A stretch of 64,000 nucleotides of DNA from Candidatus Omnitrophota bacterium (GTDB lineage Bacteria; Omnitrophota; Gorgyraeia; Pluralincolimonadales; Pluralincolimonadaceae), in assembly GCA_028716565.1 (NCBI GenBank), contig JAQUPL010000001.1, positions 537,476 through 601,475 on the forward strand, written 5' to 3'. Below are positions 1 to 51,470 of the stretch, piece after piece. A program made the position numbers and the translations under genes. The notes beneath the pieces are model-generated. The model made no database searches, had not been told where the DNA came from, and saw nothing but the letters and a program-made list of their open reading frames with translations. The first letter of the stretch is position 1. Each line of letters starts with the position of its first letter.

Positions 1-310
1 CCTCGGACGGGCCTGCCGACTCTTTCTTCTGCAGGTATTGCGGCTCTTCTTTTTCGAGGAAATAATATGACCTCAAAAGTTTCATCGCGGTCTCTTTCCT
101 CACCCCGATCTCCCTCGAGGCATACGCCTCAAACGTCAGGTATCCCCAGTCCCGGTAAAGTTTGTCTTTCCAGACGGAATAGAGCGACTGGCCCAGCTCT
201 ATCCAGGATGTCTTAAAATTAATGACATTCCGCAGGACCGTGTAGCGGATCGAGCCCTCATCCAGCCCCTCCATCTTCCGCTCTATATTCTCTATCGCTT
301 TTGTCTTCAC
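1..310 (-). CDS. hypothetical protein (5' part only; continues beyond window start). Putative GTG start at 310-308 overlaps the upstream stop as GTGA.
   Basis: Open frame on minus strand from 310 to the window edge (VKTKAIENIERKMEGLDEGSIRYTVLRNV...WGYLTFEAYASREIGVRKETAMKLL...). No family recognised. Codon pattern is consistent with neighbours. Confidence 0.3.
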   Translation of the reverse strand, partial: MKTKAIENIERKMEGLDEGSIRYTVLRNVINFKTSWIELGQSLYSVWKDKLYRDWGYLTFEAYASREIGVRKETAMKLLRSYYFLEKEEPQYLQKKESAGPSE

Positions 311-23250: not shown

Positions 23251-23326
23251 TGGAGCGGGTGAACGGGATCGAACCGTCGACAACTACCTTGGCAAGGTAG
23301 CGCTCTACCAGCTGAGCTACACCCGC
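23251..23326 (-). tRNA. tRNA-Gly (anticodon GCC), CCA encoded
   Basis: Reverse complement GCGGGTGTAGCTCAGCTGGTAGAGCGCTACCTTGCCAAGGTAG...GGTTCGATCCCGTTCACCCGCTCCA folds as a cloverleaf. Anticodon loop TTGCCAA. Confidence 0.85.
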
Positions 23327-23350
23327 GTTATCTTCAACTTCCCAATGAAC

Positions 23351-23435
23351 TGGTGCGCGGAAGAGGGTTTGAACCTCCACGGGTTTCCCCAATAGCTCCT
23401 AAGGCTATCGCGTCTGCCAGTTCCGCCATCCGCGC
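23351..23435 (-). tRNA. tRNA-Leu (anticodon TAG), long variable arm, CCA encoded
   Basis: Reverse complement GCGCGGATGGCGGAACTGGCAGACGCGATAGCCTTAGGAGCTAT...GGTTCAAACCCTCTTCCGCGCACCA. Anticodon loop CTTAGGA. Confidence 0.8.
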
Positions 23436-23454
23436 GGAGACAAAAACGGCACTA

Positions 23455-23530
23455 TGGTGAGCCGCGAAGGACTCGAACCTTCAACCAACAGATTAAGAGT
23501 CTGCTGCTCTACCGATTGAGCTAGCGGCCC
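23455..23530 (-). tRNA. tRNA-Lys (anticodon CTT), CCA encoded
   Basis: Reverse complement GGGCCGCTAGCTCAATCGGTAGAGCAGCAGACTCTTAATCTGTTG...GGTTCGAGTCCTTCGCGGCTCACCA. Anticodon loop CTCTTAA. Confidence 0.85.
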
Positions 23531-30507: not shown

Positions 30508-30512
30508 CAATG

Positions 30513-30521
30513 TGGTATAAT
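30513..30521 (+). promoter_or_regulatory. extended -10 element TGGTATAAT, 6 nt upstream of the ATG at 30528 (same architecture as the exosortase promoter)
   Basis: tgtggtataat-tatgac-ATG read from sequence. Confidence 0.35.
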
Positions 30522-30527
30522 TATGAC

Positions 30528-32462
30528 ATGCGTTACTTAATTTTAGCTTTGGTTTTAGCGGGGGTCGTTGGCGTAGCCCACGCCGAAGAAGGCTGGTTCC
30601 CTTTCTCTTATGGTAAGGATCTTGATTCCAATTCTCTTCTAAATATGGGCAAGCTCGTTCTCGACCCACCTGCAGGCAAACACGGTTTTGCAAAGGCTGC
30701 GGGAAATCATTTTGTCTTTGAAGATGGAACTCCAACGCGCTTTTTCGGTACAAATTTATATTTTGAAGCATGCTTTCCCACACATAAACAAGCAGAAATA
30801 ATAGCTGAACGCTTGGCTTTCTTCGGTTTTAATGCTGTCCGTCTACATCATATGGATTTCTATTTTGAACCTAAAGGCATTTTTGAAGATATTTGTCCAG
30901 CTTTTAAAAACCCTCAAATGAAAAAAACTGGTATCTTAAGTAAGAAGCAGCTTGAAAGACTTGATTATTTAATTTATCAATTGAAAATACGAGGCATCTA
31001 TGTTGATTTGAATTTGCTTGTCGGAAGACATTTTACTGAAGCTGATGGTGTAAAGGACGCGGATAAACTTGTTTTGGCAGCAAAACCTGCTTCCGTGTTT
31101 GACGAGAAGCTTATTGCGCTTCAAAAACAGTACACCAAAGATTTATTAACTCACTATAACCCTTATACAAAACTTCGCTATTATGAAGAACCGGCAATTG
31201 CACTTATCGAGATAACCAATGAAAATTCTCTATTAGATTCTTGGTATGACGACAAACTTAATGGCGATATGCCGGGCTTCAAAACAAATCCAATTCCTGT
31301 ATATTATTCCAAGGAGCTCAACAAATTATGGAATATTTGGCTTCAAGATAAATATAAAACTGTCGAAGCAGTAAAGACCAGTTGGCTGTCTATCTCTTGT
31401 TTCAACGATGTATCAAAATTTGATTTTCAAATACCTGTACATAAACTCAGAGCGTTGGTCTCCAAAAAATGTCTTGATGATTTTCGCTCTTTTCTTATTT
31501 CGCTTGAAAAACGTTACTTTTCAATCATGCTAAATTTACTAAAGAGCGAAATAAAGATAAAGGTACCAATAACAGGAATAGGCGGGTGTTCAAACGTTGA
31601 GGAATTAGAAGCACAAGAACAATGCGATTTTCTCGATAAGCATGCCTATTGGGATCATCCGCGTTTTCCACATAAAACATGGGACCAGAATGATTTCACC
31701 ATTAAAAATAACTCAATACTCCAAAACGCCTCGTTCGGGATGATGGAAAATATAGATAAATTCAACTTGCGTAAAAAGCCTTTCACCGTTACAGAGTGGA
31801 ATCACTGTTATCCCAACAAATATGCGTACGAAACACCACCCCTTATGGGTGCATATGCAGTAAAGAATGATTGGTCAGGAATTTTTCAATACGCACTTAC
31901 CCGAGGTTGGCAATTCGATCCTGTCTACGACGTGATTTCCAGCTATTTTGATACTTTTGCAAACGCACAACAACTCAGCCTTAGCGCGATAGGAAGTTTT
32001 ATTGTGCAACGTTGTCCGGATATTAACGTTGTAGTAAATAATGATTCTGCTACTTTTGAATCGGATTTTCTTTGCGGGGTTACCGGCTTTATCGGTGGTA
32101 AAGAATTCCACATTAGAAATCTCACCGTTAATTCAGATAAAAACGGGTCAATATTTATTTATTCTCCTGATCTAAAAGAGATTGGTTCTGCAAAAACACT
32201 AATTTGCTTGGTTGTTGGCGAGATTAAAAACGAGGATAGTCAGTGGGACTCACAAAAAATGTTTAATTGGGGAATTAAAAAGACTGTACTGAGCGCGATT
32301 AATGCGAAAATTGGGATTGGATCATTCCGTCCCGGAATAGTGTATGCACTTGACAATCAAGGAAAAAGATCGCGCATAATTCCATCGAGCTATATCTCTG
32401 ATAAGCTGGTTTTTACGACTAACAAAGCAGATACCCTCTGGTATGAAATCTCGTTAAAATAA
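30528..32462 (+). CDS. secreted clan GH-A (GH5-like) glycoside hydrolase (track ORF starts at 30510, but the ATG at 30528 gives signal peptide MRYLILALVLAGVVGVAHA)
   Basis: FFGFNAVRLHHMD and IALIEITNENS (NE acid/base motif) are typical of (beta/alpha)8 clan GH-A enzymes. AT-rich codon usage. Confidence 0.5.
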   Translation: MRYLILALVLAGVVGVAHAEEGWFPFSYGKDLDSNSLLNMGKLVLDPPAGKHGFAKAAGNHFVFEDGTPTRFFGTNLYFEACFPTHKQAEIIAERLAFFGFNAVRLHHMDFYFEPKGIFEDICPAFKNPQMKKTGILSKKQLERLDYLIYQLKIRGIYVDLNLLVGRHFTEADGVKDADKLVLAAKPASVFDEKLIALQKQYTKDLLTHYNPYTKLRYYEEPAIALIEITNENSLLDSWYDDKLNGDMPGFKTNPIPVYYSKELNKLWNIWLQDKYKTVEAVKTSWLSISCFNDVSKFDFQIPVHKLRALVSKKCLDDFRSFLISLEKRYFSIMLNLLKSEIKIKVPITGIGGCSNVEELEAQEQCDFLDKHAYWDHPRFPHKTWDQNDFTIKNNSILQNASFGMMENIDKFNLRKKPFTVTEWNHCYPNKYAYETPPLMGAYAVKNDWSGIFQYALTRGWQFDPVYDVISSYFDTFANAQQLSLSAIGSFIVQRCPDINVVVNNDSATFESDFLCGVTGFIGGKEFHIRNLTVNSDKNGSIFIYSPDLKEIGSAKTLICLVVGEIKNEDSQWDSQKMFNWGIKKTVLSAINAKIGIGSFRPGIVYALDNQGKRSRIIPSSYISDKLVFTTNKADTLWYEISLK

Positions 32463-32471
32463 GCAGTTGTT

Positions 32472-33650
32472 CTAATTACCGCTACTCTTCACTTTTGAAT
32501 TAAATTCATAAAACTTCTTACCTAAGAGACATTTGACAATGCGGTGTGCGGCATAACCATCACCGTAGGGATTTGCGCCTGTCGCCATCAATTCATAGTG
32601 CCGTTTGTTATTAAGTAGCTTTTGCGTTTCCTCTACTATCTTAGCCTTATTGGTACCCACTAATCTTGCAACACCAGCCTTAATCGCCTCAGGTCGCTCA
32701 GTCACCTCTCTCATTACAAGAACTGGTATATTTAGCGAAGGAGCCTCTTCCTGTATGCCGCCAGAGTCAGTCAGGATAATATGGGATCTTTTCATGAGTT
32801 GAACAAATACATCATAACTAAGCGGAGGAACTAAGTGTATTCGTTTGTTTTCACTTAAAGCGTTAAAAACGGGCTTATTAACATTTGGATTCAAATGAAC
32901 TGGATAAATAAATTCAACGTTAGGATTCAGTTTCGATAATTTTCGTATTGCATTGCAGATATTCTTAAGTGGGCTGCCAAAGCTTTCCCTGCGATGAGCA
33001 GTTATTAAGATTATTTTTCTGTCAAAATCCACGGATGCCAGTTGTTTAGCAAATTTCGGATTGTCCGAGGATGAACTACTTGTCTTTTTCCGCGCCATGA
33101 ATAAAAGCGCATCAATTCCGGTATTTCCCGTAATATAGATTGAATTTTTATCAATATTCTCAAGGAGTAAATTCTTTTTCGCCTGCAAAGTAGGAGCGAA
33201 ATTATAATCGGCAATCACAGAAATCAAACGCCGGTTTGCTTCTTCGGGAAAAGGGCTATATTTATCATAGGTACGCAAACCGGCCTCAATATGCGCCACA
33301 GGGATTTTTTTGTAATACGCTGAAAGAGCACCGATAAAAGCTGATGTCGTATCTCCCTGCACCACAATAAGATCCGGATTAATTTTTGTTAATATTTTCT
33401 CAAATCCTTTTAGCGCCTTTCGGGATATTGAAAATAGTGTCTGGTTATTGCTCATGATATTCAAATTATAATCCAGATTGATATCGAATGCCTGCAGAAC
33501 CTGCTTAAGCATTTCGATATGCTGAGAAACAGAAACGTTGACTAAGTTAACCCCCCGGTATTTTTTAAATTCCCGTATTACGGGCGCCATCTTGATGGCC
33601 TCCGGCCGTGTTCCAAAAACAATAATAATATTATATTTTGTTTTAATCAT
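32472..33650 (-). CDS. wecB: UDP-N-acetylglucosamine 2-epimerase (non-hydrolysing)
   Basis: IIVFGTRPEAIKMAPV...HIEAGLRTYDKYSPFPEE motifs. 392 aa. Confidence 0.85.
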   Translation of the reverse strand: MIKTKYNIIIVFGTRPEAIKMAPVIREFKKYRGVNLVNVSVSQHIEMLKQVLQAFDINLDYNLNIMSNNQTLFSISRKALKGFEKILTKINPDLIVVQGDTTSAFIGALSAYYKKIPVAHIEAGLRTYDKYSPFPEEANRRLISVIADYNFAPTLQAKKNLLLENIDKNSIYITGNTGIDALLFMARKKTSSSSSDNPKFAKQLASVDFDRKIILITAHRRESFGSPLKNICNAIRKLSKLNPNVEFIYPVHLNPNVNKPVFNALSENKRIHLVPPLSYDVFVQLMKRSHIILTDSGGIQEEAPSLNIPVLVMREVTERPEAIKAGVARLVGTNKAKIVEETQKLLNNKRHYELMATGANPYGDGYAAHRIVKCLLGKKFYEFNSKVKSSGN

Positions 33651-34405
33651 TGCTTTTTCACTCCTCGTAACATTTCTTTAAAGATAAGCCTGAAAAAATA
33701 AATATCCTCAACCAGATATCGCTTCCATAGTCGCTTTGGTTCGTTTATGAGTCGCCAAAACCACTCGAGCCCTAATTTCTGCATAAAAACAGGCGCCCGC
33801 TTAATTCGCTCGGATAAAACCTCAAAAAGACCACCGATGCAAATGATGTACTTTGCGTTGATCTTGCTGCGATGGCTCGATATCCATTGTTCCTGCCGGG
33901 GAGAACCCATACCGATAAACAGGAAGCTTGCATCCGAACTGTTAATTTTATCGATGACCATCTGAGAATCGGTAAAACTGAAAAAACCGTTATGCATACC
34001 GGAAACAGAGAGCCTCGGATACTTATTGCTCAGTTTCTCCGACACAAGTTTTAAATTTTCGTCGGTTGAACCAAGCAGGAAGACCTTTTCGGAAGTCTCT
34101 GCGGAAAGAGTCAACAATATATGCGTTGCATCAAAACCAGTAACCCTGGACTTTAATGTCTTCCTTAAAATTAAACTGCCTAGCAGGACTATCGAACTAT
34201 CGCAAAGCGACAGATCGGCCTTGTTCAGGATATTTTTGAATTCTTCATTTTGGGCTGCCCGTATCACAAAATCCACATTAGGCGTAACAATGAAAACCTG
34301 TCCTTCCCCGCTTCCCGCGACATCTCGAAGGAAAGCCTCGAGCTCAGGCAAGCTTATATTATCAAAATTTACGCCACAAATTTTCAGTCTGGGGACTGTA
34401 CGCAT
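33647..34405 (-). CDS. WecG/TagA/CpsF-family glycosyltransferase (UDP-ManNAc(A) transferase type)
   Basis: FIVTPNVDFVI...FLLGS...FLFIGMGSPRQEQWI signature. 252 aa. Confidence 0.8.
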   Translation of the reverse strand: MRTVPRLKICGVNFDNISLPELEAFLRDVAGSGEGQVFIVTPNVDFVIRAAQNEEFKNILNKADLSLCDSSIVLLGSLILRKTLKSRVTGFDATHILLTLSAETSEKVFLLGSTDENLKLVSEKLSNKYPRLSVSGMHNGFFSFTDSQMVIDKINSSDASFLFIGMGSPRQEQWISSHRSKINAKYIICIGGLFEVLSERIKRAPVFMQKLGLEWFWRLINEPKRLWKRYLVEDIYFFRLIFKEMLRGVKKQ

Positions 34406-35465
34406 ATAGTATCCATCCTAAATGATACGAATATTCCCAATTCATCCGGCAAAGATATTTTGGCTGGTCAAAATAGCCGGACAAACAATCGATTTTCATA
34501 AACTTAAAGACCAGCGTCCTAACATTAATCAGTTTGGCAAGAAAACGTTTGCGCTGAATCCCTCTGCGAACGTAATTCTTTTCTTCATTAGCCAGTTTTA
34601 CATTCAACTCGTTTTCTGAGAAAAGCCATTGTAAACCCAAGGAAATCGATGACGAATAATCCTTCTGCGACACTTTGTTTAATTCCATAAGCGCAAACGG
34701 AGCCATCGAATCCTGATGAACGGAATACACAGGATATTTCTGTATTACGGTGCCGCGAGGAACATTATAATGCCACCACCATTGCCCCTGCTTACCCTGC
34801 AACGAACAGATTTTGTCGGCGCATTGTTCGGAGATCTGTAGACTCTCGCCGTCACGTTTCAACCCATAATAAAGCGCAAAAGCATAGATCGAATAAATCT
34901 GATCAGCGAAATTTGCAATGTCATACCGTATGTCGAAGCTAGAAAAGAAGCTGTTACGCGGCCTATGATAAAATAGGCATGTATCGCAATTGAAGCGTTT
35001 TTTTAAATGTTGCGATACGGCATCCATAGTCTTACCGGTCTTTTCGGACCTTTTTTGATGCGCATAGAACACAAGAGAAGTCAATAACCATGCAACTTCC
35101 ATCGTCTCGGCGTTGATAATTACATTCGAGGGTAAAGCACAAATTTTCCCGAATATGATGTCGGAACGCGGGTCATTCTCTTTTGCCAAAAGCCATAAAA
35201 GTAAAGCCGATTCACGTAATCCGCTTTTCATGGCAACCTGCTCATAAACTCTGTTTTTTGATTCGGAAAAATCAATATGCACAGATTCCTTATAGTTTGA
35301 TATACCGAGAAGTGAAATTAGACTGTGTGTCAATAAAAGGTTTGCTTTTTCAGGAGAACGTCCCAGGTCAGTCACAATAAAGCTAAATAGAGAGGTCTGG
35401 GGATCGTAATAAGCCTCGAGCCCATTAGCTGCGATACTCAATAAACAAGCTATGTAATCATTCAT
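34362..35465 (-). CDS. hypothetical protein, possibly an (alpha/alpha)-barrel polysaccharide-modifying enzyme
   Basis: 367 aa, no confident family. Embedded in a glycosyltransferase cluster. AT-rich. Confidence 0.3.
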   Translation of the reverse strand: MNDYIACLLSIAANGLEAYYDPQTSLFSFIVTDLGRSPEKANLLLTHSLISLLGISNYKESVHIDFSESKNRVYEQVAMKSGLRESALLLWLLAKENDPRSDIIFGKICALPSNVIINAETMEVAWLLTSLVFYAHQKRSEKTGKTMDAVSQHLKKRFNCDTCLFYHRPRNSFFSSFDIRYDIANFADQIYSIYAFALYYGLKRDGESLQISEQCADKICSLQGKQGQWWWHYNVPRGTVIQKYPVYSVHQDSMAPFALMELNKVSQKDYSSSISLGLQWLFSENELNVKLANEEKNYVRRGIQRKRFLAKLINVRTLVFKFMKIDCLSGYFDQPKYLCRMNWEYSYHLGWILYAYSPQTENLWRKF

Positions 35466-40983: not shown

Positions 40984-42297
40984 TTAGGAAAACAGCCTTT
41001 TTATAATCAATAACAATAGAATAAGCGTAATACTTAAAGCCATCGGTTTAATTAATTCATAATAGTAGTCTGAAAGTTTCAACTTGATAATCTTCAATGT
41101 AATATAATTCGTATATATTGACCATAGTATTGAGAATAAAGTATACAAATAAGCAACTCCATATATCCCCCAATTTAACCCTATAATTACCGATATAATA
41201 GTAATAAACGCATTTCCTATCCCTATTTTTAAATGCAACTTAGAATTGCCCGTGGAAAGACGGATATTTCCTGAAATAGAATCGCTGACTGATTGAGTCA
41301 AGCCACAAAAGCATAAAATTCTTATTAGTAATATTGCGGGTTGCCATTTATGTCCAAGTATTAGGAAAACAAAGTCCGGAGCTATAGCAAACATACCTAA
41401 CATGGCTGGAAAACTAACCATAGAAATAATTTTTACTTCTTTAATGTACGCATTACGTAATTTCTCAATATCATTTTGGATCCTAGAAAATGCTGGGAAC
41501 ATAACTTTTCCAATCACCCAAGATATGTTTCGTATTGGATACAACATAATTTTATATGCTAGTGCATAGTATCCTAATGCTTCTGCCCCTAAATACTTAC
41601 CAATTAAAAGCTGGTCAACATTTCTCGCGAAATAATTTACTACGTTAAATCCTGTTAAGTTAGCGCTAAAATGAAAGATGTCTTTTATATCCTGTATCGC
41701 GAAAACAAATTTTGGTCGCCAAGTCGAAACTGTCCATAAAAGTATGGCATTTAGTAGAGTAAAAATTACTGACTGATAAACTAAACTCCACACGCCAAAA
41801 CCATGGTACGCCAAGTAGATACCTACGATACCTGATATTGCAACCGCTAAAATATCGCGAATAGCAAGTTTTTTAAAATCCATTTCTTTTGAAAGAATTG
41901 TCTGCTGTATAATTACAAAAGAAGACAAGAAGAAATTAACCGATATTACTATTAGAATAGGCTGCAGCTCCGGCTTGTTATAAAACCATGCAATAATTGG
42001 CGAAACTGCAATAAAAACCAAGGTTAGAAGTACGCCTACGATAATATTAAACCAAAAGGCGGAATAATAATGTCTATCATTAGTATCTTGTTTCTGAATT
42101 AGTGCACTGCTGATTCCCATCTCACTGAAAATCATTGCAAAATTGATAAAGACAGTTGCCATCGCCAATAGGCCGAAATCATCGGGAGAAAGAAGGCGGG
42201 CAAGAATTATAGTTATAACTAATTGGCTTATCTGCTTTCCTGCCTGTGAAAATCCTGACCAGAATAAACCCTTTATTGTCTTTTCCTTAAGACTCAC
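40984..42297 (-). CDS. Wzx-type oligosaccharide flippase (MOP superfamily polysaccharide biosynthesis protein)
   Basis: N-terminal KGLFWSGFSQAGKQISQLVITIILARLLSPDDFGLLAMA signature. 12-14 TM. Confidence 0.8.
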   Translation of the reverse strand: MSLKEKTIKGLFWSGFSQAGKQISQLVITIILARLLSPDDFGLLAMATVFINFAMIFSEMGISSALIQKQDTNDRHYYSAFWFNIIVGVLLTLVFIAVSPIIAWFYNKPELQPILIVISVNFFLSSFVIIQQTILSKEMDFKKLAIRDILAVAISGIVGIYLAYHGFGVWSLVYQSVIFTLLNAILLWTVSTWRPKFVFAIQDIKDIFHFSANLTGFNVVNYFARNVDQLLIGKYLGAEALGYYALAYKIMLYPIRNISWVIGKVMFPAFSRIQNDIEKLRNAYIKEVKIISMVSFPAMLGMFAIAPDFVFLILGHKWQPAILLIRILCFCGLTQSVSDSISGNIRLSTGNSKLHLKIGIGNAFITIISVIIGLNWGIYGVAYLYTLFSILWSIYTNYITLKIIKLKLSDYYYELIKPMALSITLILLLLIIKRLFS

Positions 42298-43868
42298 TAC
42301 ACCCTCTCGTAGATCGCCTTCGGAATTGCGAAAGTGCGGCTGCCGAGGATGGCGCCGAGGAAAACAGGTTTTGCCTTTGAGAGCACCTCGACCGCTTCTT
42401 TCGCGACCTGGCGGCGGGTGCGGCCTTCGTTAACCATGAACGCGACGCTGTCTACGTGGGAACTTAACACTATGGCGTCCTTCGACTCCCTCAGGTTAGC
42501 GCAGTCAAGGAATACCACGTCATATTTTTCCTTCGCGTGGTCTATCAGCACGCCCATCTTCTGGGATTCCAACAGGGAGCCGGGGTTTATATCCACCTTC
42601 CCTGTGGTCAGGACGAAGAGGTTGTCGGTCACCTTGTTGACGGCATCCTCGAAGGAAATATTTCCTTCGAGGACATCCACAAGGCCCCTAGTGTTGGCGA
42701 TCTTGAAGGCCTGATGGATGGCGGGTTTCCGCAGGTTGGTGTCCATAACAAGGACCTTCGGCCTGCATTTGTTCGAGATGCTCCTGGCAAGGTTGACTAT
42801 GGCTGTCGTAACGCCTTCCTTCGGATAGGCCGCTACTACCATTACGGACTTTAACTTCCTGTCTTTCAACTCAAAACAGAGCTGGTCTGAGATATGCTCG
42901 TAGTCGTGCGGTTTCGGCTTTCTGGGTATGGCCCCGAGGAATGGCATGCTGAGCACGTCCTCAATTTCCTGGGGGGACTTGAACGTCTGGTCCATGTAAT
43001 CGAAACCGAACGCGAGCATGACGCCGAGGAAGATGCTCATAAAGAAAGCAAGGATGAGTGTGAGGACTTTCGGCAGGCCCGCCGGCTTTAACGGCGGTAT
43101 CGCCTGCTCGACGATTTTTACGCTTGCCGGGCCGATAGCTTCGATATTCGGCAGGGGCTGGCCGTTCAAGCTCTTTTCCATCTGGGTGATGCTGTCTCTA
43201 AGCTGCATGACGGCCAGGTTCTTCTCGCCGTATTTCATCTGCATCTCTGCCAACTGCTGTTCGAGGTCAAAAATGACATACGAGCGGCTGATGATATTCG
43301 CGATTGCCGCGGCAATGCCCGGGTCAAAATCCCTGTATGTGATGGTAAAAAGGTTCGTGTCGCGGAGCGGTTCGACCTTTACATTGTCCTCCATATCTTT
43401 AAGGGCCAGCCGGAAGAGGATATTTTGCTTCTGCTGTTCCGCTATCTTCAGGTCGGTCGTTTTAGCGGTTATCTCGGCGAACTGTTTATTTAACGCGGCG
43501 ACCTGCCAATCTATCATGGCTTGGCGCGGCGGGCTGGCAAACTTCTTCTCGAAATCGAGCGGCTTGAGGCCGACGGCTTTTAGCGCGCGCTCCATGACAG
43601 GGTTCGATTTGACTATTTCGCTCTGGGTGAGGGCTACCTGTATGTTCTGCATGCTAATAAGAGGGCTGTAGTACGGCGCCTCCGTCCCCTTCTGCGCCGT
43701 GACAAGCAACTTTACCGTCGCCTCGTAGGTATTCGTTTTCATCCAGAGCCCGAGCGCCACGACTACCGTCACCGTGACTATCGACGTGAAGACGACCCAT
43801 TTCTGCCTGAAAAGGACCTTCAAATAGTCCCTAAGCGTAAGTTCGTCCATCTTAGCCTCCTTTAACAA
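42297..43868 (-). CDS. Wzc/GumC-like polysaccharide co-polymerase with C-terminal degenerate BY-kinase-like domain
   Basis: Wzz-type N-terminus (TM, long periplasmic coiled region, TM) then an ATPase-like domain whose Walker A reads AAYPKEGVTTA (no GK[ST] lysine). GC-rich, unlike the preceding 12 kb. Confidence 0.65.
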   Translation of the reverse strand: MLKEAKMDELTLRDYLKVLFRQKWVVFTSIVTVTVVVALGLWMKTNTYEATVKLLVTAQKGTEAPYYSPLISMQNIQVALTQSEIVKSNPVMERALKAVGLKPLDFEKKFASPPRQAMIDWQVAALNKQFAEITAKTTDLKIAEQQKQNILFRLALKDMEDNVKVEPLRDTNLFTITYRDFDPGIAAAIANIISRSYVIFDLEQQLAEMQMKYGEKNLAVMQLRDSITQMEKSLNGQPLPNIEAIGPASVKIVEQAIPPLKPAGLPKVLTLILAFFMSIFLGVMLAFGFDYMDQTFKSPQEIEDVLSMPFLGAIPRKPKPHDYEHISDQLCFELKDRKLKSVMVVAAYPKEGVTTAIVNLARSISNKCRPKVLVMDTNLRKPAIHQAFKIANTRGLVDVLEGNISFEDAVNKVTDNLFVLTTGKVDINPGSLLESQKMGVLIDHAKEKYDVVFLDCANLRESKDAIVLSSHVDSVAFMVNEGRTRRQVAKEAVEVLSKAKPVFLGAILGSRTFAIPKAIYERV

Positions 43869-43914
43869 GTTTTAGTTCTTAGTTGTTAGTTCTTAGTAAA
43901 AGCAAAAAACTAAG

Positions 43915-44289
43915 TTATAACCTCATCCTTATTGAACTGATCAAGCCGGAGATCATTTTTCCGACTTCGCTACCGGCATTCTCTACTTTCTCAAGCTGAG
44001 CGTCGTTGATCCATTTCTTTAGATGAAAAATCCTTAACAATGTGACAGTTTCAAACAAAGAGCCGCGGGCAATATGCAAAAACTGGAGAAACTCCTTTTT
44101 TGAATAGCGCCCTTTGCCTTCCGCTATATTTAAAGCTATGGAAGTTGAAGATGCCTCTAACTGCTCTATAAGCCGATAATGCCTGGGATCGGTGTTAATT
44201 TCTTCGGTAAGATCGATTACACTTTTGGCGAAATCAATTGCTTTCTTCCATACTTCCAATTCTTCAAAATTAAACGGCGATTTTCTCAT
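43915..44289 (-). CDS. four-helix-bundle protein (TIGR02436-type; 23S rRNA-IVS protein family); start taken at MRKSPFNFEELEVWKK
   Basis: FEELEVWKKAIDFAKSV...ALNIAEGKGRYSKKEFLQFLHIARGSLFE signature. The longer track ORF (to 44334) would overlap the upstream small ORF. Confidence 0.65.
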   Translation of the reverse strand: MRKSPFNFEELEVWKKAIDFAKSVIDLTEEINTDPRHYRLIEQLEASSTSIALNIAEGKGRYSKKEFLQFLHIARGSLFETVTLLRIFHLKKWINDAQLEKVENAGSEVGKMISGLISSIRMRL

Positions 44290-44438
44290 CTGACAGAATG
44301 CGGAGAAATGCGCACAACCTTGCCATTCTTCCACACTGCCAGCGACCGGCCTGTTTTTTTGTGGCGCTCCACTACCTGCCGAATCGCTTTTTTCATAGCC
44401 GCTTCAGCCTTATCCTGTAAGGACATTCTCTTTTTCAT
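44286..44438 (-). CDS. unannotated 50-aa ORF between the zeta-like ATPase and four-helix-bundle genes (possible antitoxin-like partner)
   Basis: MKKRMSLQDKAEAAMKKAIRQVVERHKKTGRSLAVWKNGKVVRISPHSVR. Starts 4 nt after the upstream stop. Its stop overlaps the downstream ATG (ATGA). Basic and helical. No family recognised. Confidence 0.35.
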   Translation of the reverse strand: MKKRMSLQDKAEAAMKKAIRQVVERHKKTGRSLAVWKNGKVVRISPHSVR

Positions 44439-44441
44439 ATC

Positions 44442-45014
44442 TCACCTCAAAAATTTGTGTATGGTGTTAAACAGCTCCTGCTCGATCACTTCTTTATGAC
44501 CGTTCTTTCTCTTCGCTATTAATACGGGTTTTGCCTTCGAATTATCGAACATCATCCATGAGTCAAACAATGGTTCATACACCTTAAAGAAGTTGTTGAT
44601 GCCTCGAAAGAATCTCCTTCTAACATCCTCATCCGGAACATTATGTCCACCCTCCCTGACTCTGTCTTTAATGCGCTGAATTGCCAACTCGGGGCTTGGA
44701 ATACATAAAAAGAAAAGATGGACGGCATACCCTTTCTTTTTCAATTCTGTAAGCGCTCTCGCGTAAGAAGTACCAGATAACGTTGTTTCAAAAGCAAAAT
44801 CGGCGCCGAGGCCGCTAAACTCATGGATTTGCTGTAATACGAGTCTGCCTGCTTTGATGGCCGCGCTACGAGGCTCAAACGGAGCTAATCCAAGAGCAAT
44901 AAGATCGGCATTTACAAAGTTAGGGCAATTTGCGTATTCCGGAAGAAATAACCTCGCTAAGGTCGTTTTCCCTGATCCGTTGGGCCCTGCGATTATATAA
45001 ACATTCTTTTTCAT
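44442..45014 (-). CDS. zeta-toxin-like P-loop ATPase/kinase (PF06414-like, short form)
   Basis: Walker A IIAGPNGSGKTTLAR. 190 aa. Overall resemblance to the short zeta-toxin/UDP-GlcNAc kinase-like AAA proteins. Lower GC than flanks. Confidence 0.6.
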   Translation of the reverse strand: MKKNVYIIAGPNGSGKTTLARLFLPEYANCPNFVNADLIALGLAPFEPRSAAIKAGRLVLQQIHEFSGLGADFAFETTLSGTSYARALTELKKKGYAVHLFFLCIPSPELAIQRIKDRVREGGHNVPDEDVRRRFFRGINNFFKVYEPLFDSWMMFDNSKAKPVLIAKRKNGHKEVIEQELFNTIHKFLR

Positions 45015-45139
45015 ATCATATCGTATGGCATGTTATACAGTATATTATAATGTATTATGTACACAAAATATAATGTGGACATCTTCTTCTTATCCACGCT
45101 AAGCTTATTAAACATATTAGGTTATAATTATACCACATT

Positions 45140-46459
45140 CTACTTGCCCTTGAGGCCGAAAACCGTAAACACGGTTCGAAGCAAAATAGCCGCGTCCAGC
45201 AGGAAACTCTGGTTCTCTATGTAAAAAAGGTCGTATTCCATGTTCTCGTGGATGGGCGACTTGCGGTGCTCGCTTATCTGCCATAGGCCGGTCATTCCCG
45301 GCTTTACTTTCAGGCGCTCTTTCTGTATCTCGTTGTATTCCTTAACGATGAATTCCATCTCCGGCCTCGGCCCTACAAGGCTCATATCGCCTTTCAGCAC
45401 GTTTATAAGCTGCGGCATCTCGTCAAGGCCGGTCCTGCGGAGGAACCGCCCCACCTTGGTTATTCGCGGGTCGTTGGATTCTTTAGGCGAGAAGTCATAC
45501 CTCGAAGACTCCGAGAACATCGTCCGGAACTTCATTATCTTGAAAGGCTTTCCTTCCTGTCCGGCGCGCTCCTGGCTGAATATGATCTTGCCCGGAGAGT
45601 TGAGCTTAATCGCCGCGGCTATTAATATCCCCGCGGGCAGGGTTATGATAAGCGCGGTAAAAGATACTATGATATCTATGGAACGCTTGAACTTCGCGTA
45701 AAGCGAATGGGGGCTGTACCTGCGCAGGCCGATGACCGGGATGCCCTCGATATCGTCCATCGAGATGAGGTCTATGGGCATATTATAAATATACGGGACG
45801 AACCTGAACAGGATATTCTTCCCGGCGCAGTAGTTCATCACGTTTAGGACCTGCTCGTAAGGTAGGTCCTGCTCTGCCATGAAGACGGCGCCTATCCGCT
45901 TCTTCTCCACGGTATCGGGCAATGTGCTTATCTCGCCCAGGATGCCTACGGGCCTAAAACCTATTTTCGGCGTATGGAGGAGTTTCGACGCGAGCCTCTT
46001 CGCCACTACCCCTGTCCCTATGATAAGCGTATTTGTGACGCCTATCCCCTGCTCGTGCCGGCTTTGTGTCCATTTGCGCAAAAGCAGCCGCTCTGGGGGC
46101 ATAAGGCACATCATGAACACGAAGAAGAAAAAGAGCGACTTGTGCAGGCCGGCGACACCCGGGAACAGGAAGAATATAAGGAATACGAAAAGGAAACCGA
46201 AGAGTATCCCCCTGAATATCGAAATGGTTTCCTTGATATGCAGTATCCCGGTCTTCGCCTTGTAAAGCCCGACGCTCTTGAACACGAATATGAAATACGG
46301 CCCCATGAACGCGAATTCCGGGATGCTTACGCCCTTTTGCGCCCCGCCGATCAGGCCGGTCTTCACCGATGCCCAGATCGCGAGCGCGAGGCTCAGGTAT
46401 ATCAGCGCCAGGTCGCAGGCCAGTACCGTATACAGCTGTATTCTCCTGTTACTATCCAT
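45140..46459 (-). CDS. undecaprenyl-phosphate sugar phosphotransferase (WbaP/EpsB-like initiating transferase)
   Basis: C-terminal bacterial sugar-transferase domain KFRTMFSES...DPRITKVGRFLRRTGLDEMPQLINVLKGDMSLVGPRP. N-terminal TM block. Confidence 0.8.
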   Translation of the reverse strand: MDSNRRIQLYTVLACDLALIYLSLALAIWASVKTGLIGGAQKGVSIPEFAFMGPYFIFVFKSVGLYKAKTGILHIKETISIFRGILFGFLFVFLIFFLFPGVAGLHKSLFFFFVFMMCLMPPERLLLRKWTQSRHEQGIGVTNTLIIGTGVVAKRLASKLLHTPKIGFRPVGILGEISTLPDTVEKKRIGAVFMAEQDLPYEQVLNVMNYCAGKNILFRFVPYIYNMPIDLISMDDIEGIPVIGLRRYSPHSLYAKFKRSIDIIVSFTALIITLPAGILIAAAIKLNSPGKIIFSQERAGQEGKPFKIMKFRTMFSESSRYDFSPKESNDPRITKVGRFLRRTGLDEMPQLINVLKGDMSLVGPRPEMEFIVKEYNEIQKERLKVKPGMTGLWQISEHRKSPIHENMEYDLFYIENQSFLLDAAILLRTVFTVFGLKGK

Positions 46460-47511
46460 CAGTTCTTTCTTATTTTTTCCGTTGTGAACGCTTTTAGCGC
46501 GTCGTATGCGGGAAGTTTCTTGTAGTCCGATGTCATGAGCCCGAAGTCGAAGTCCTTCGGCATGCCGATCTCGGTCCCGCAGTCGCGCAGTGTATGCCAG
46601 AAGACCACCTCTATGCCCTGGTTGAAGAACATTTCATAGAATTTGGCCAGCATTTCCGCCTTGTCTTTCTCTTCCTTTGCCCGGTCGCCGCTCTTGAAGA
46701 AATCCGGCGTCGTCGAGACCTCGGTCACCCATATCGGCATATCCTTGCCTGACCATTTCACGATATTCTGCGTGTTAGTTATCGCCCTCTGGACATCCCA
46801 GGTGGACTTCGAATAAGCGTGTATGCTCATTATGTCAAAATAGCCGAAGGCGCCCTCTTTTATCAGGCCCTTCATAAAGGTATCGTCGAGCGGGTAGGCG
46901 ATGCCGCCCACCAGGACTTTACATCCCGGGTCGCCCCTCTTCAGCCCCGCGTACATCTTCTTCAGCACTTCCGTATATTCTTTCACGTCGGGCTTGCCCC
47001 TCCAGAATATGAAGAGGTCCGGCTCGTTCCATGCCTCGTAATATTTTATCTTTCCCTTGTAATGCGCGGCCAGCGCCTCGCAGAACCTTTCGATGTCATT
47101 GAAGTCTTTTGCCGGGAAATGGTTCGTGCCTATGTCGAAATTGTTCACTCGCGCCGGCCCGCCGCTCGCGTTCCATTTCGCGGAGATCGGCACGGTGAAG
47201 AGGATGTCTATATCGTTGCGGCGCAGGGTATCTACTATCTTGTCCATCTTATCCCACGAATATTTCCCGCGCGACGGCTCGAGCTCGTCCCAGCAATCGG
47301 TGTTCATTCGGGTTATGCCGATATTCAGGTCCCTGGCGTACGGTATCTCTTTTTCATAGACTTCTACGGGAGCCCATACCCCGAGAACGCCGCCCATGTA
47401 AGTACCGAAATTTTTAGGCGAAAGTGGCGCGCTGCCGGAATTTTGCGGCGTGACTGCAGCCCCCATTATTAAAATTGCCGCCAGGAAATTCATCATACGA
47501 AGGTCCTCCAT
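46459..47511 (-). CDS. secreted clan GH-A glycoside hydrolase (GH5/GH39-like)
   Basis: Signal peptide. YYEAWNEPD (acid/base NEP) and IWVTEVST (nucleophile TE) motifs. Confidence 0.5.
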   Translation of the reverse strand: MEDLRMMNFLAAILIMGAAVTPQNSGSAPLSPKNFGTYMGGVLGVWAPVEVYEKEIPYARDLNIGITRMNTDCWDELEPSRGKYSWDKMDKIVDTLRRNDIDILFTVPISAKWNASGGPARVNNFDIGTNHFPAKDFNDIERFCEALAAHYKGKIKYYEAWNEPDLFIFWRGKPDVKEYTEVLKKMYAGLKRGDPGCKVLVGGIAYPLDDTFMKGLIKEGAFGYFDIMSIHAYSKSTWDVQRAITNTQNIVKWSGKDMPIWVTEVSTTPDFFKSGDRAKEEKDKAEMLAKFYEMFFNQGIEVVFWHTLRDCGTEIGMPKDFDFGLMTSDYKKLPAYDALKAFTTEKIRKN

Positions 47512-50348: not shown

Positions 50349-50886
50349 TATTTTCCTTTATTACCCTCGCGGGGGAGCCGGCAACGACCTTGTTGTCCGG
50401 GACATCGTCAAGCACCAGGGACGCCGCGCCGACCGACACGTTATTGCCGACTTTAACAGTGGCGAGTATTTTCGCGCCGATATACATCGTTACGTTATCG
50501 CCGACTACCGGGCCTCCGTACCAGCCCTTGTCGTTCTCTTTTGTGCCGCCGCCGAAAACGTTCTGCCCGTATAACAACGCGTTCTTGCCTATCTTGGCGT
50601 GTATGATGTTGCCGACGAGGTGGCATATCACCAGCCCGGGGCCTATTTCCGACATCGGGGAGATATCCAGCCCGAAAAACATTATGTTAAGCACGTAAAA
50701 GAATTTCGATACCAGCCCGAGGCGCTTGCAGAAGAAATAATGCGAGAGCCGGTAGATGCTTGTCGCCACCGATATATGCGAGAAGAGGCCCGCGAGCAAT
50801 CCGAAGAACGAAGTGCTCTTGCGCATGTATACGCGCCGACGGCGGTTATCCTCCCATATATACGAGAACAGCTGGAATAACGTCAT
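50341..50886 (-). CDS. serine-O-acetyltransferase-like hexapeptide-repeat acyltransferase (polysaccharide O-acetylation)
   Basis: Left-handed beta-helix repeats with the CysE-like loop (GGTKENDKGWYGGPVVGDNVTMYIGAKIL). Confidence 0.6.
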   Translation of the reverse strand: MTLFQLFSYIWEDNRRRRVYMRKSTSFFGLLAGLFSHISVATSIYRLSHYFFCKRLGLVSKFFYVLNIMFFGLDISPMSEIGPGLVICHLVGNIIHAKIGKNALLYGQNVFGGGTKENDKGWYGGPVVGDNVTMYIGAKILATVKVGNNVSVGAASLVLDDVPDNKVVAGSPARVIKENNG

Positions 50887-51470
50887 TTAGCCCTTTCGTA
50901 CATGTTTGCACCCGGCGTAACCTTGCCCATCACCCTCGCCGGGGTGCCCGCGACTATCGAGCCGGCCGGGATGTCCTTGAATATGGTCGCCCGCGAGAGG
51001 ATCCAACAGCCATCCCCTATGGTGACCGGCCCCAGTATCAATATGTCCACGCCGAACTGGACGTTATTGCCTATCACGGGAAGTCCGGGGCCCGCCCCGG
51101 CATCCGCGCTTGACCCGTCACCTCCTGCTTTAAGAGCGCCGGCGATGACCGCGTTCTCCCCTACGTTACCTGTGATCGCCGTGGCAACGGGATGAAAAAG
51201 GATAAAACCCTTCCCTATCTCGGCCCTTGGATTCAGGTCCGTCCCTGTAATCATGATGCCGATGTTCTGCATAAGCCTGCTTATGAGCCGGATGTTGAGA
51301 CCGTCAAACCAGTGCGCTATCCTGTAGATACAAATCGCGCAAGTCCCCGGAAGCAGCAAAAAGCTCAGCAAAGAGGTGATGCCGGCCTTCTTGTGGTTCA
51401 GTTTCAGCCAGAAAGTGTAATCGCCCCACATATTGGCGAATGTTCTGTCGAGAGTCGTCCTTTTTTTCAT
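50883..51470 (-). CDS. hexapeptide-repeat acyltransferase, second paralog
   Basis: Same architecture (PRAEIGKGFILFHPVATAITGNVGENAVI...). Tandem with previous gene, ATGA overlap. Confidence 0.55.
   Translation of the reverse strand: MKKRTTLDRTFANMWGDYTFWLKLNHKKAGITSLLSFLLLPGTCAICIYRIAHWFDGLNIRLISRLMQNIGIMITGTDLNPRAEIGKGFILFHPVATAITGNVGENAVIAGALKAGGDGSSADAGAGPGLPVIGNNVQFGVDILILGPVTIGDGCWILSRATIFKDIPAGSIVAGTPARVMGKVTPGANMYERAK

Follow-up and report, generated by a model that had tools for sequence, protein, structure and literature searches.

A zeta-like kinase and its conserved 50-residue downstream partner, a probable toxin-antitoxin-like cassette inside an Omnitrophota polysaccharide locus

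Zeta-family kinases are among the few toxins of toxin-antitoxin systems that hit metabolites and not translation, and few of their substrates are known, namely uridine diphosphate N-acetylglucosamine (UDP-GlcNAc), other UDP-sugars and nicotinamide adenine dinucleotide (NAD). The Xanthomonas protein AvrRxo1, a type III effector of about 420 amino acids (aa) with extra domains, is a zeta-like kinase that acts not on UDP-GlcNAc but on NAD, which it phosphorylates at the 3'-OH. In the AvrRxo1-Arc1 system the toxin gene comes first and the gene of the small neutralising partner second, and structures of AvrRxo1 label the two ORF1 and ORF2, respectively (ORF, open reading frame); a 2023 preprint describes an AvrRxo1 partner as acting as an antitoxin. 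The epsilon/zeta and PezA/PezT systems have toxins of 250-290 aa that carry a GTXR motif, which was defined for UDP-GlcNAc binding at Gly117-Thr121 of zeta (PMC6362051), and their antitoxins are encoded upstream and are three-helix bundles, with a helix-turn-helix (HTH) in addition in PezA. Characterised zeta toxins phosphorylate UDP-sugars (PMC3062530, PMC5923241), and UDP-GlcNAc is also the substrate of the kinase of E. coli EzeT (PMC10532202), in which an N-terminal antitoxin domain and the kinase share one polypeptide. The 197-aa Rv0366c (PezT-Mtb) has Asp36 and no GTXR motif, its overexpression is bacteriostatic, and its partner rescues growth (PMC6362051). When PezT/Zeta homologues were surveyed in 2023, the antitoxins of 'orphan' homologues were sought upstream only (PMC10532202). 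Here we analyse a stretch of 64,000 nucleotides (the window) from a Candidatus Omnitrophota bacterium (contig JAQUPL010000001.1, positions 537,476 to 601,475), in which the gene of a zeta-like kinase, a 50-aa ORF and a four-helix-bundle gene follow one another, all three on the minus strand as read from the sequence (Table 1). We found that the kinase and the small protein form a conserved pair to which the four-helix-bundle gene does not belong. Our preferred reading, to which we give a probability of about 0.6, is that the pair is a toxin-first, toxin-antitoxin-like cassette of the zeta superfamily in which the small helix-hairpin protein would hold the kinase inactive. A toxin-antitoxin module was one of the proposals of the first-pass annotation of this DNA, and it is the one that fits best.

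The kinase passes the gathering threshold of the Pfam family Zeta_toxin (PF06414; 51.4 bits against a cut-off of 22.3, E 1.2e-13) and, more weakly, that of AAA_33 (PF13671; 31.9 bits, cut-off 27). It had been called zeta-like from the sequence alone, which holds in the broad sense of the term, and it is neither a gluconate nor a shikimate kinase. Its homologues make up more than 7,800 clusters at 90% identity; all of those displayed have a precomputed PF06414 assignment and, where the source gives a name, it is 'zeta toxin family protein' or 'predicted ABC-type ATPase'. In a library clustered at 50% identity, 11,294 relatives were found at E<=1e-3. Under the accession MDD5546114.1 ('zeta toxin family protein') the identical sequence is on record from a Candidatus Omnitrophota metagenome-assembled genome (MAG). 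The family is known and named, and the window copy is unremarkable within its very large clade. In an alignment of 56 sequences, G10, N12, G13, G15, K16, N35, D37, E76, T78, R114 and R118 are invariant in the family, and phmmer aligns D37 to the DGD region of PezT. The PezT residues E-G-T-L-R align to E76-T77-T78-L79-S80 of the kinase, where the Thr is retained and the Gly and Arg are not, and the family consensus at this position is ETTL[AS]G. By the PezT alignment and the 56-sequence consensus, the UDP-GlcNAc-binding GTXR motif is absent from the kinase, so UDP-GlcNAc is not necessarily its substrate.

To place the fold, we used an AlphaFold2 model of P0246, a natural fused homologue that is 51-52% identical (predicted local distance difference test (pLDDT) 87.4, predicted template modelling score (pTM) 0.72). 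Its best fold match in the Protein Data Bank (PDB) is AvrRxo1 (4z8q_A, E 1.3e-8, TM 0.59), followed by PezT and zeta (2p5t, 3q8x, 1gvn; ~1e-6), and it also matches the Clostridium thermocellum polynucleotide kinase (~1e-6) and O-phosphoseryl-tRNA kinase, both at nearly the same E values as PezT and zeta. By sequence, AvrRxo1 gives nothing at E<=1 against the kinase. When the family profile is run against PDB sequences, the best whole-domain match is Pnkp1 (4xrp, E 3.9e-5), and PezT fails E 0.01. The first-pass annotation had noted that zeta/PezT toxins are UDP-GlcNAc 3'-kinases; that activity cannot be taken for granted here, given both what aligns to GTXR (T77-T78-L79-S80) and a profile match that is better for Pnkp1 than for PezT. 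The PF13671 match, the RxxxR motif and the similarity to Pnkp1 place the kinase in the same clan and do not by themselves fix the function. The kinase looks like a competent phosphotransferase of the clan that holds zeta, AvrRxo1 and the polynucleotide kinases, with a substrate that is not readable from the sequence. We propose that this P-loop phosphotransferase of the zeta/AvrRxo1/PezT-Mtb superfamily, using ATP, Lys16, Asp37 and Arg114/Arg118, would phosphorylate a hydroxyl on an essential nucleotide-like metabolite or on nucleic acid.

Likened by published description and not by direct alignment, Rv0366c would be the nearest characterised analogue of the window kinase: both are small zeta-like P-loop kinases with a Walker A motif, an aspartate at a matching place (Asp36, here Asp37), an arginine at about 116 (here Arg114/Arg118) and no GTXR motif. 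The partners differ, in that PezA-Mtb (Rv0367c) is a 129-aa protein of ribbon-helix-helix (RHH)/ParD-like type encoded upstream, whereas the partner here is a helix-hairpin protein encoded downstream, with no detectable RHH similarity. With epsilon/zeta and PezA/PezT the kinase shares PF06414, the fold, Walker A and the catalytic aspartate (Asp67 in zeta, Asp66 in PezT), but it is shorter than those toxins and lacks their GTXR motif, and upstream of it there is no antitoxin gene but 125 nucleotides (nt) of intergenic DNA. AvrRxo1, unlike the window kinase, is a large effector, and although it is the best fold match it has no significant sequence match; its partner is not matched by the model of the 50-aa protein either (Foldseek against the PDB, nothing at E<1).

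These matches also accommodate a different reading, in which the pair would be a non-toxic two-subunit kinase that acts on nucleic acid (an RNA or tRNA end) or on a nucleotide, with the basic 50-aa protein as its binding or targeting subunit. We regard this as unlikely. The profile match to Pnkp1, the polynucleotide kinase and O-phosphoseryl-tRNA kinase folds at nearly the E values of PezT and zeta, the AAA_33 match above the Pfam threshold and the RxxxR lid motif (R114/R118), which occurs in polynucleotide kinases, all point towards it, as does the strongly basic character of both proteins (pI 9.7 for the kinase and 11.75 for the small protein), yet by fold it is the toxins AvrRxo1, PezT and zeta that match best. 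The kinase shares the layout of Walker A, Asp and RxxxR with the polynucleotide 5'-kinases (Pnkp1, C. thermocellum Pnkp, T4 Pnk; AAA_33); in contrast to those systems, which have phosphatase, ligase and Hen1 partners, the window pair has no such RNA-repair partner, and its distribution is that of a toxin-antitoxin cassette.

The toxin-antitoxin-like reading rests in large part on how the two genes are paired. We fetched 80 genome loci (L002-L081) with the kinase as query and sought the partner by tblastn. Represented among them are Omnitrophota, Planctomycetota, Elusimicrobia, Patescibacteria, Verrucomicrobiota, Clostridia, Ratteibacteria, Desantisbacteria and Margulisbacteria. In 78 of the 80 the kinase gene has a small-ORF homologue directly 3' of it, the same toxin-first order as in AvrRxo1-Arc1, and the remaining 2 loci stop at or just past the kinase gene. 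The tight spacing of kinase and small ORF is kept across related loci, at -4 (ATGA) in 30/77 and +3 in 23/77, and no conserved ORF was found upstream of the kinase in the 77 loci of the window's clade. Thus, as far as comparison of loci can tell, the small protein is an obligate partner of the kinase. The first-pass annotation had pointed out that the toxin-first order reverses that of epsilon/zeta and that the small ORF may therefore be a novel partner; the order itself has a precedent within the superfamily in ORF1/ORF2 of AvrRxo1. As in generic type II toxin-antitoxin systems, there are two small, co-oriented and apparently coupled genes, a known toxin family and a patchy, mobile, multi-copy distribution.

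The small protein has 348 clusters of homologues, mostly of exactly 50 aa, with the conserved motif KA..A..KA...V..HKKTGRPLAVW.NGK. Pairwise dN/dS of the small ORF has a median of 0.068, and variation is concentrated in third codon positions, indicating a genuine gene under purifying selection. We looked for an NCBI accession of the 50-aa protein and found none; because the accessions of the deposited four-helix-bundle protein (MDD5546113.1) and of the kinase are consecutive, the ORF is evidently unannotated in the deposited genome. The first-pass annotation had pointed to a missed ORF here, and its conservation and selection bear this out. An AlphaFold2 model (pLDDT 88) shows a single long helix at residues 7-29 followed by a beta-hairpin at 33-44. 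The protein has no match in Pfam, NCBIfam or PADLOC and only a marginal one in PHROGs (phrog_5649, E 0.007, unknown function); its profile against PDB sequences gives chance-level matches to designed proteins only, and Foldseek of the model against the PDB gives a best E of 1.8.

In some relatives the two proteins are one. Natural fusions consist of the kinase, a linker of 20-60 residues and the small-protein domain at the C-terminus (P0246, P0252, P0270, P0278, P0284 and P0391-P0393, with two tandem partner copies in P0323), and the fused partner domains are about 40% identical to the window's small protein. Together with the confident P0246 model, in which both parts are present, these fusions would point indirectly to a physical link between kinase and partner. 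We propose that the small protein, translationally coupled to the kinase, would bind it stoichiometrically and keep it inactive, as epsilon, PezA and Arc1 do, and that in the lineages with fusions the partner domain would be a cis-acting version comparable to EzeT. The likeness to EzeT lies in having both functions in one polypeptide; the EzeT antitoxin domain is N-terminal, whereas the fused domain here is C-terminal and of a different fold.

In the window, the stop codon of the kinase gene and the ATG of the small ORF are separated by 3 nt (GAT), not by the 4 nt given earlier; the coordinates of the three ORFs and the ATGA in which the stop codon of the small ORF overlaps the start of the four-helix-bundle gene read from the sequence as the first-pass annotation had them. 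Because its Shine-Dalgarno sequence overlaps the kinase stop codon (Table 1), translational coupling of the small ORF to the kinase gene is suggested. The ORF lister started the four-helix-bundle gene at a GTG at 44334, which appears less likely than the ATG because the Pfam domain and the homologue in the near relative L001 both start at the ATG.

Table 1. Positions of the genes, signals, loci and kinase motifs in the window, and related loci with an upstream tRNA gene
Feature	Position or locus	Strand	Remarks
Zeta-like kinase gene	44442-45014	-	190 aa; putative toxin
Small partner ORF	44286-44438	-	50 aa; putative antitoxin or regulatory subunit
Four-helix-bundle gene	43915-44289	-	124 aa from ATG; TIGR02436 / 23S_rRNA_IVP family
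GAGGTG Shine-Dalgarno of small ORF	44443-44448	-	read from sequence; overlaps kinase stop codon
AT-rich intergenic stretch 5' of kinase gene	45015-45139	-	125 nt, 26% GC
Polysaccharide locus A	~59.5 kb to 46.5 kb		Bac_transf, Poly_export, GT2, Wzz, Wzy, Wzx, further genes
Polysaccharide locus B	~46.5 kb to 32.5 kb		Bac_transf, three ORFs, Wzz, Wzx, Wzy, glycosyltransferases, WecG, UDP-GlcNAc 2-epimerase
Walker A of kinase	G10-T17		GPNGSGKT
Putative catalytic base of kinase	D37		motif FVNAD
Other kinase motifs	E76-T78; R114/R118; 122-124; 132-134		FETTL; RxxxR; GGH; RRR
Related loci with same-strand tRNA gene upstream of kinase	L005, L006, L009, L010, L012, L013, L016, L017, L020, L034, L040, L041, L047, L064, L066

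Several observations weigh against a toxin-antitoxin pair. We detected no recognisable DNA-binding domain in the small partner, as autoregulation would call for. Classical antitoxins usually evolve faster than their toxins and are usually acidic, and here the partner is as conserved as the kinase (~80% against 77% identity) and is basic. The repeated fusion would be expected of an enzyme with a permanent accessory domain no less than of a cis-antitoxin, and it is this, together with the equal conservation, that suits a permanent subunit of a nucleic-acid kinase. Among the defence models of PADLOC-DB 2.0, the kinase gives only P-loop matches of Walker-A length; the four-helix-bundle protein and the 50-aa protein give none. 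Many of the loci have the pair embedded in a host operon, a few nucleotides from its neighbours and lacking a promoter of its own.

On the matter of DNA binding, P0241, P0242, P0247 and P0397 carry a winged-helix or XRE HTH domain N-terminal to the kinase in the same polypeptide, and at least P0397 (L086, 3001-4121) keeps a downstream small partner (72 aa, 4-nt overlap) and adjoins a DDE transposase. Since the kinase of P0397 carries such a domain and still keeps its partner, the arrangement suggests that DNA binding, where needed, would be supplied separately and that the role of the partner would lie in protein-protein interaction. The HTH-kinase-partner arrangement is a three-function layout reminiscent of omega-epsilon-zeta. 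In two further loci the kinase gene is found in what may be decaying copies or assembly errors: in L073 (2501-3069) it appears frameshifted while the small partner is intact, and L025 has, some 2.3 kb upstream of an intact pair, a further short piece of a kinase gene (2567-2656).

The main comparative argument for the kinase as a toxin comes from its more distant relatives. Plasmid-borne relatives with 28-39% identity, in Sphingobium, Variovorax, Piscirickettsia, Zymomonas, Burkholderia, E. coli and Agrobacterium, differ in that the kinase gene is overlapped by a gene upstream of it, which encodes a ParD-like protein, a Phd protein or an unannotated protein of about 80 aa, and no downstream partner is annotated for them in the PLSDB gene tables, which are incomplete. 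Such mixing and matching of partners is typical of the toxins of toxin-antitoxin systems, and the pairing of relatives with ParD-like and Phd antitoxins speaks against a nucleic-acid-processing enzyme. The upstream partners of about 80 aa (L091, L094, L095 and L096, from E. coli, Piscirickettsia, Zymomonas and Burkholderia plasmids) belong to no Pfam family and share the motif D.G..A..HL..G.P[IV]YY...[KR].[FY]PDG...LV. We considered whether this upstream partner (HL.aG.PvYY) is homologous to the 50-aa downstream partner (RHKKTGRPLAVW) and found no support for it, as hhalign gave a probability of 1% and E 0.05.

The pair itself behaves like a mobile cassette, judging by its varied flanks, its multiple copies and its sites at tRNA genes and on plasmids. 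The 102 nearest flanking ORFs of the pair (77 loci) hold 178 Pfam families. Two copies of the pair are present in one 1.55-Mb chromosome (L044, L071) and two in one MAG (L010, L022). On the Synechocystis PCC 6803 plasmid pSYSG the pair is sll8004/ssl8003, flanked by a DUF433/PIN pair, the S subunit of a type I restriction-modification system and a DarTG-like pair; on a Nostoc plasmid it lies between VapBC pairs, and on a Legionella pneumophila plasmid it adjoins a Tn3 transposase. Kopfmann et al. (2016) treated sll8004/ssl8003 only as 'related to TA modules' (TA, toxin-antitoxin), their criteria not being met. The pSYSG region (L082, 2197-4932) is a dense toxin-antitoxin and defence island, in which a gene for a 96-aa MNT-like protein of the nucleotidyltransferase family overlaps the start of sll8004 by 8 nt and the DUF4433 and macro-domain genes of the DarTG-like pair lie directly 3' of the small partner. 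At the nucleotide level there is no match among plasmids, and a phage collection gave four weak protein matches only.

With more than 7,800 clusters in many phyla and copies on plasmids of Synechocystis PCC 6803, Nostoc and Legionella, this clade is not an orphan: its partner is a conserved downstream protein of 50-65 aa that is often unannotated, belongs to no named family and in some members forms one polypeptide with the kinase. The helix-hairpin protein downstream, the fusions that contain it and the non-orphan status of the clade seem to be undescribed; in searchable papers we found no description of the partner. The sll8004/ssl8003 genes offer a testable pair in a tractable model organism and might yield an antitoxin fold and a kinase substrate not seen before. 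The find is not a surprise in kind, and the pair provides no evidence for a role in polysaccharide synthesis.

A tRNA gene on the same strand lies about 75-500 nt upstream of the kinase in 15 of the 80 loci (Table 1), and 4 loci (L024, L034, L053, L068) have one some 110-330 nt beyond the small ORF on its downstream side, so that 18/80 (~22%) adjoin a tRNA gene, as compared with about 1% that we estimate from typical tRNA gene density. This adjacency could reflect an insertion hot spot or a functional link. Were the kinase a non-toxic RNA- or tRNA-end enzyme, the upstream tRNA genes within 500 nt would reflect its function or co-expression. However, no single kind of tRNA is involved (Ser, Gln, Leu, His, Glu, Arg and Gly all adjoin the pair), and in the tRNA-Ser/Arg clusters of Omnitrophota the spaces between tRNA genes hold LAGLIDADG ORFs as well as the pair. 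In the window, a tRNA-Lys(ctt)/Leu(tag)/Gly(gcc) cluster on the minus strand (23251-23530) is uninterrupted, with spacers of 20-25 nt; in the same cluster of L017 (4317-6812) the pair and an ORF of 255 aa occupy the space between tRNA-Leu and tRNA-Gly, and next to tRNA-Lys lies a tyrosine recombinase (integrase). The two clusters are the empty and the occupied site of one polymorphism. The varied tRNAs, the LAGLIDADG ORFs in the same spaces and the nearby integrase argue for an insertion hot spot, and the patchy, multi-copy distribution over plasmids and toxin-antitoxin islands is unlike that of a housekeeping enzyme. A toxin could itself act on RNA, and because GTXR is missing, the profile matches Pnkp1, O-phosphoseryl-tRNA kinase is among the fold matches, both proteins are basic and the pair lies just downstream of same-strand tRNA genes in about a fifth of the loci, we give a low probability to a kinase that would not act on UDP-sugars at all but would poison cells by phosphorylating a nucleic-acid end (for example a hydroxyl of tRNA or other RNA), with the basic protein as a partner of a new kind, gating or targeting it in trans or in cis.

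The window holds two tandem Wzx/Wzy polysaccharide loci, A and B. The three-ORF block had been thought to be wedged between these loci; it lies inside locus B, between the initiating transferase gene (Bac_transf, 45140-46459) and the Wzz gene (42297-43868). It had also been described as sitting next to an island with a UDP-GlcNAc 2-epimerase. The epimerase gene (32472-33650) does belong to the same locus, but it lies at the opposite end, about 10.6 kb from the block. The lower guanine-plus-cytosine (GC) content that had been noted for the block was borne out: it is 43% in the kinase gene, 49% in the small ORF, 40% in the four-helix-bundle gene and 26% in both intergenic stretches that flank the block, compared to 53-54% in the neighbouring Bac_transf and Wzz genes. 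In L001, the near relative, DNA identity with the window is about 95% over the pair, between the kinase ATG and the stop codon of the small ORF, and drops sharply on both sides, and these boundaries together with the low GC mark the pair as an insertion.

This setting had led to the proposal that the kinase was recruited to modify the pool of polysaccharide precursors. In that case the pair would be a nucleotide-sugar kinase with a regulatory subunit, drawn into polysaccharide and sugar-nucleotide pathways and tuning their precursors, which we consider improbable. The pair lies inside a Wzx/Wzy locus both here and in the 92% identical relative, the characterised zeta toxins act on UDP-sugars, and the commonest families among the 102 immediate neighbours are Epimerase/GDP_Man_Dehyd (7) and NTP_transferase (3). 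The pair adjoins Epimerase/GDP_Man_Dehyd or nucleotidyltransferase genes in L002, L011, L052, L061, L063, L065, L076 and L081, and it stands between two genes of the Epimerase/GDP_Man_Dehyd family in L065 and L081 and between two nucleotidyltransferase genes in L063, with gaps of at most 14 nt. Only about 10% of the pair's neighbours, however, are nucleotide-sugar enzymes, against the 178 Pfam families in all, and about 90% of the loci have no such neighbour. In our own scan, epimerase and nucleotidyltransferase genes made up 11/143 of the nearest genes and 13/375 of more distant ones, an enrichment of only about two-fold; this modest excess is in part shared synteny among Elusimicrobia. The GTXR recognition motif is absent, the pair occurs also in tRNA clusters and in plasmid toxin-antitoxin islands, its low GC and sharp identity boundaries are those of an insertion, and polysaccharide loci are known hot spots for horizontal transfer. 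The best reading is that the pair is a mobile insertion, not a pathway component or a dedicated polysaccharide enzyme. The toxin-antitoxin-like cassette would enter genomes where recombination is frequent, for example in tRNA clusters, in operons for sugar-nucleotides and polysaccharides and in the toxin-antitoxin islands of plasmids, and its place in a polysaccharide locus here would be happenstance. It is possible that the pair has the effect of 'stabilising the island'.

The third gene of the block is a clear member of its family, as had been recognised from the sequence: the 124-aa protein scores 107.6 bits against TIGR02436 (cut-off 24) and 109.5 bits against PF05635 (cut-off 33.8). It scores 19.4 bits against the model of the diversity-generating retroelement accessory protein Avd (NF033474), below the cut-off of 80, and unlike its TIGR02436/PF05635 kin it lies neither in an rRNA intervening sequence nor in a diversity-generating retroelement. 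The first-pass annotation had treated kinase, small ORF and four-helix bundle as a trio, and a single three-component system would be in keeping with the ATGA overlap in the window, with a four-helix-bundle gene after the pair in the near relative too (L001, 983-1372) and with another such gene about 1.5 kb from the fused kinase P0246. The comparative data contradict a three-gene module, which we regard as essentially excluded. In loci L002-L081 no four-helix-bundle homologue adjoins the pair, and L052 alone has one, about 4.7 kb downstream; the plasmid copies of the pair have no four-helix-bundle gene. In L001 the gene follows the pair after a gap of 53 nt, and its protein is only 46% identical to that of the window, whereas the pair proteins are 92-100% identical and, beyond the gene, the start of the Wzz protein is nearly identical to the window again. 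Because it is so divergent between near-identical flanks, the four-helix-bundle gene is judged to be separately exchangeable, an independent, swappable passenger outside the module that accompanies the pair only in this lineage. Four-helix-bundle genes may in general be exchangeable cassettes; the one near P0246 (L087, 1133-1546) adjoins a PIN pair.

The AT-rich stretch 5' of the kinase gene contains a sigma-70-like site, TGGATA-18-TATATT, at 45096-45067 and an imperfect palindrome at 45034-45061, and it may serve as promoter and operator. We take this feature to be weak because promoter-like matches in the stretch are no more frequent than in shuffled sequence. The spacer is missing in the near relative, where the kinase gene begins 4 nt after Poly_export (L001, the P0004 contig). 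No intrinsic terminator was found around the block, and Rfam gave no RNA element at E<=1 over 42000-47000. The gene order on the P0004 contig, which is that of the 92% identical relative, is MFS_3, BBP2_2, Bac_transf, Fic, Poly_export, kinase, small ORF, four-helix bundle and Wzz. In the window, the MFS_3, BBP2_2, Bac_transf and Poly_export block stands at the head of locus A (57.4-62 kb), and locus B has only Bac_transf and then the AT-rich spacer before the kinase gene. Since locus B has neither a Poly_export (Wza-like) gene of its own nor Fic, the region 45015-46459 looks rearranged.

Elsewhere in the window, Pfam gave nothing at E<=1e-5 for three sizeable ORFs that lie in or adjoin the polysaccharide loci: 30510-32462 (+), 34362-35465 (-) and 50883-51470 (-), of 650, 367 and 195 aa. 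Between 38000 and 42200, a region that spans the Wzx, Wzy and GT1 genes of locus B, the GC content is 29-37% as compared to about 53% around it, which is typical of the horizontally exchanged, serotype-specific part of a polysaccharide locus.

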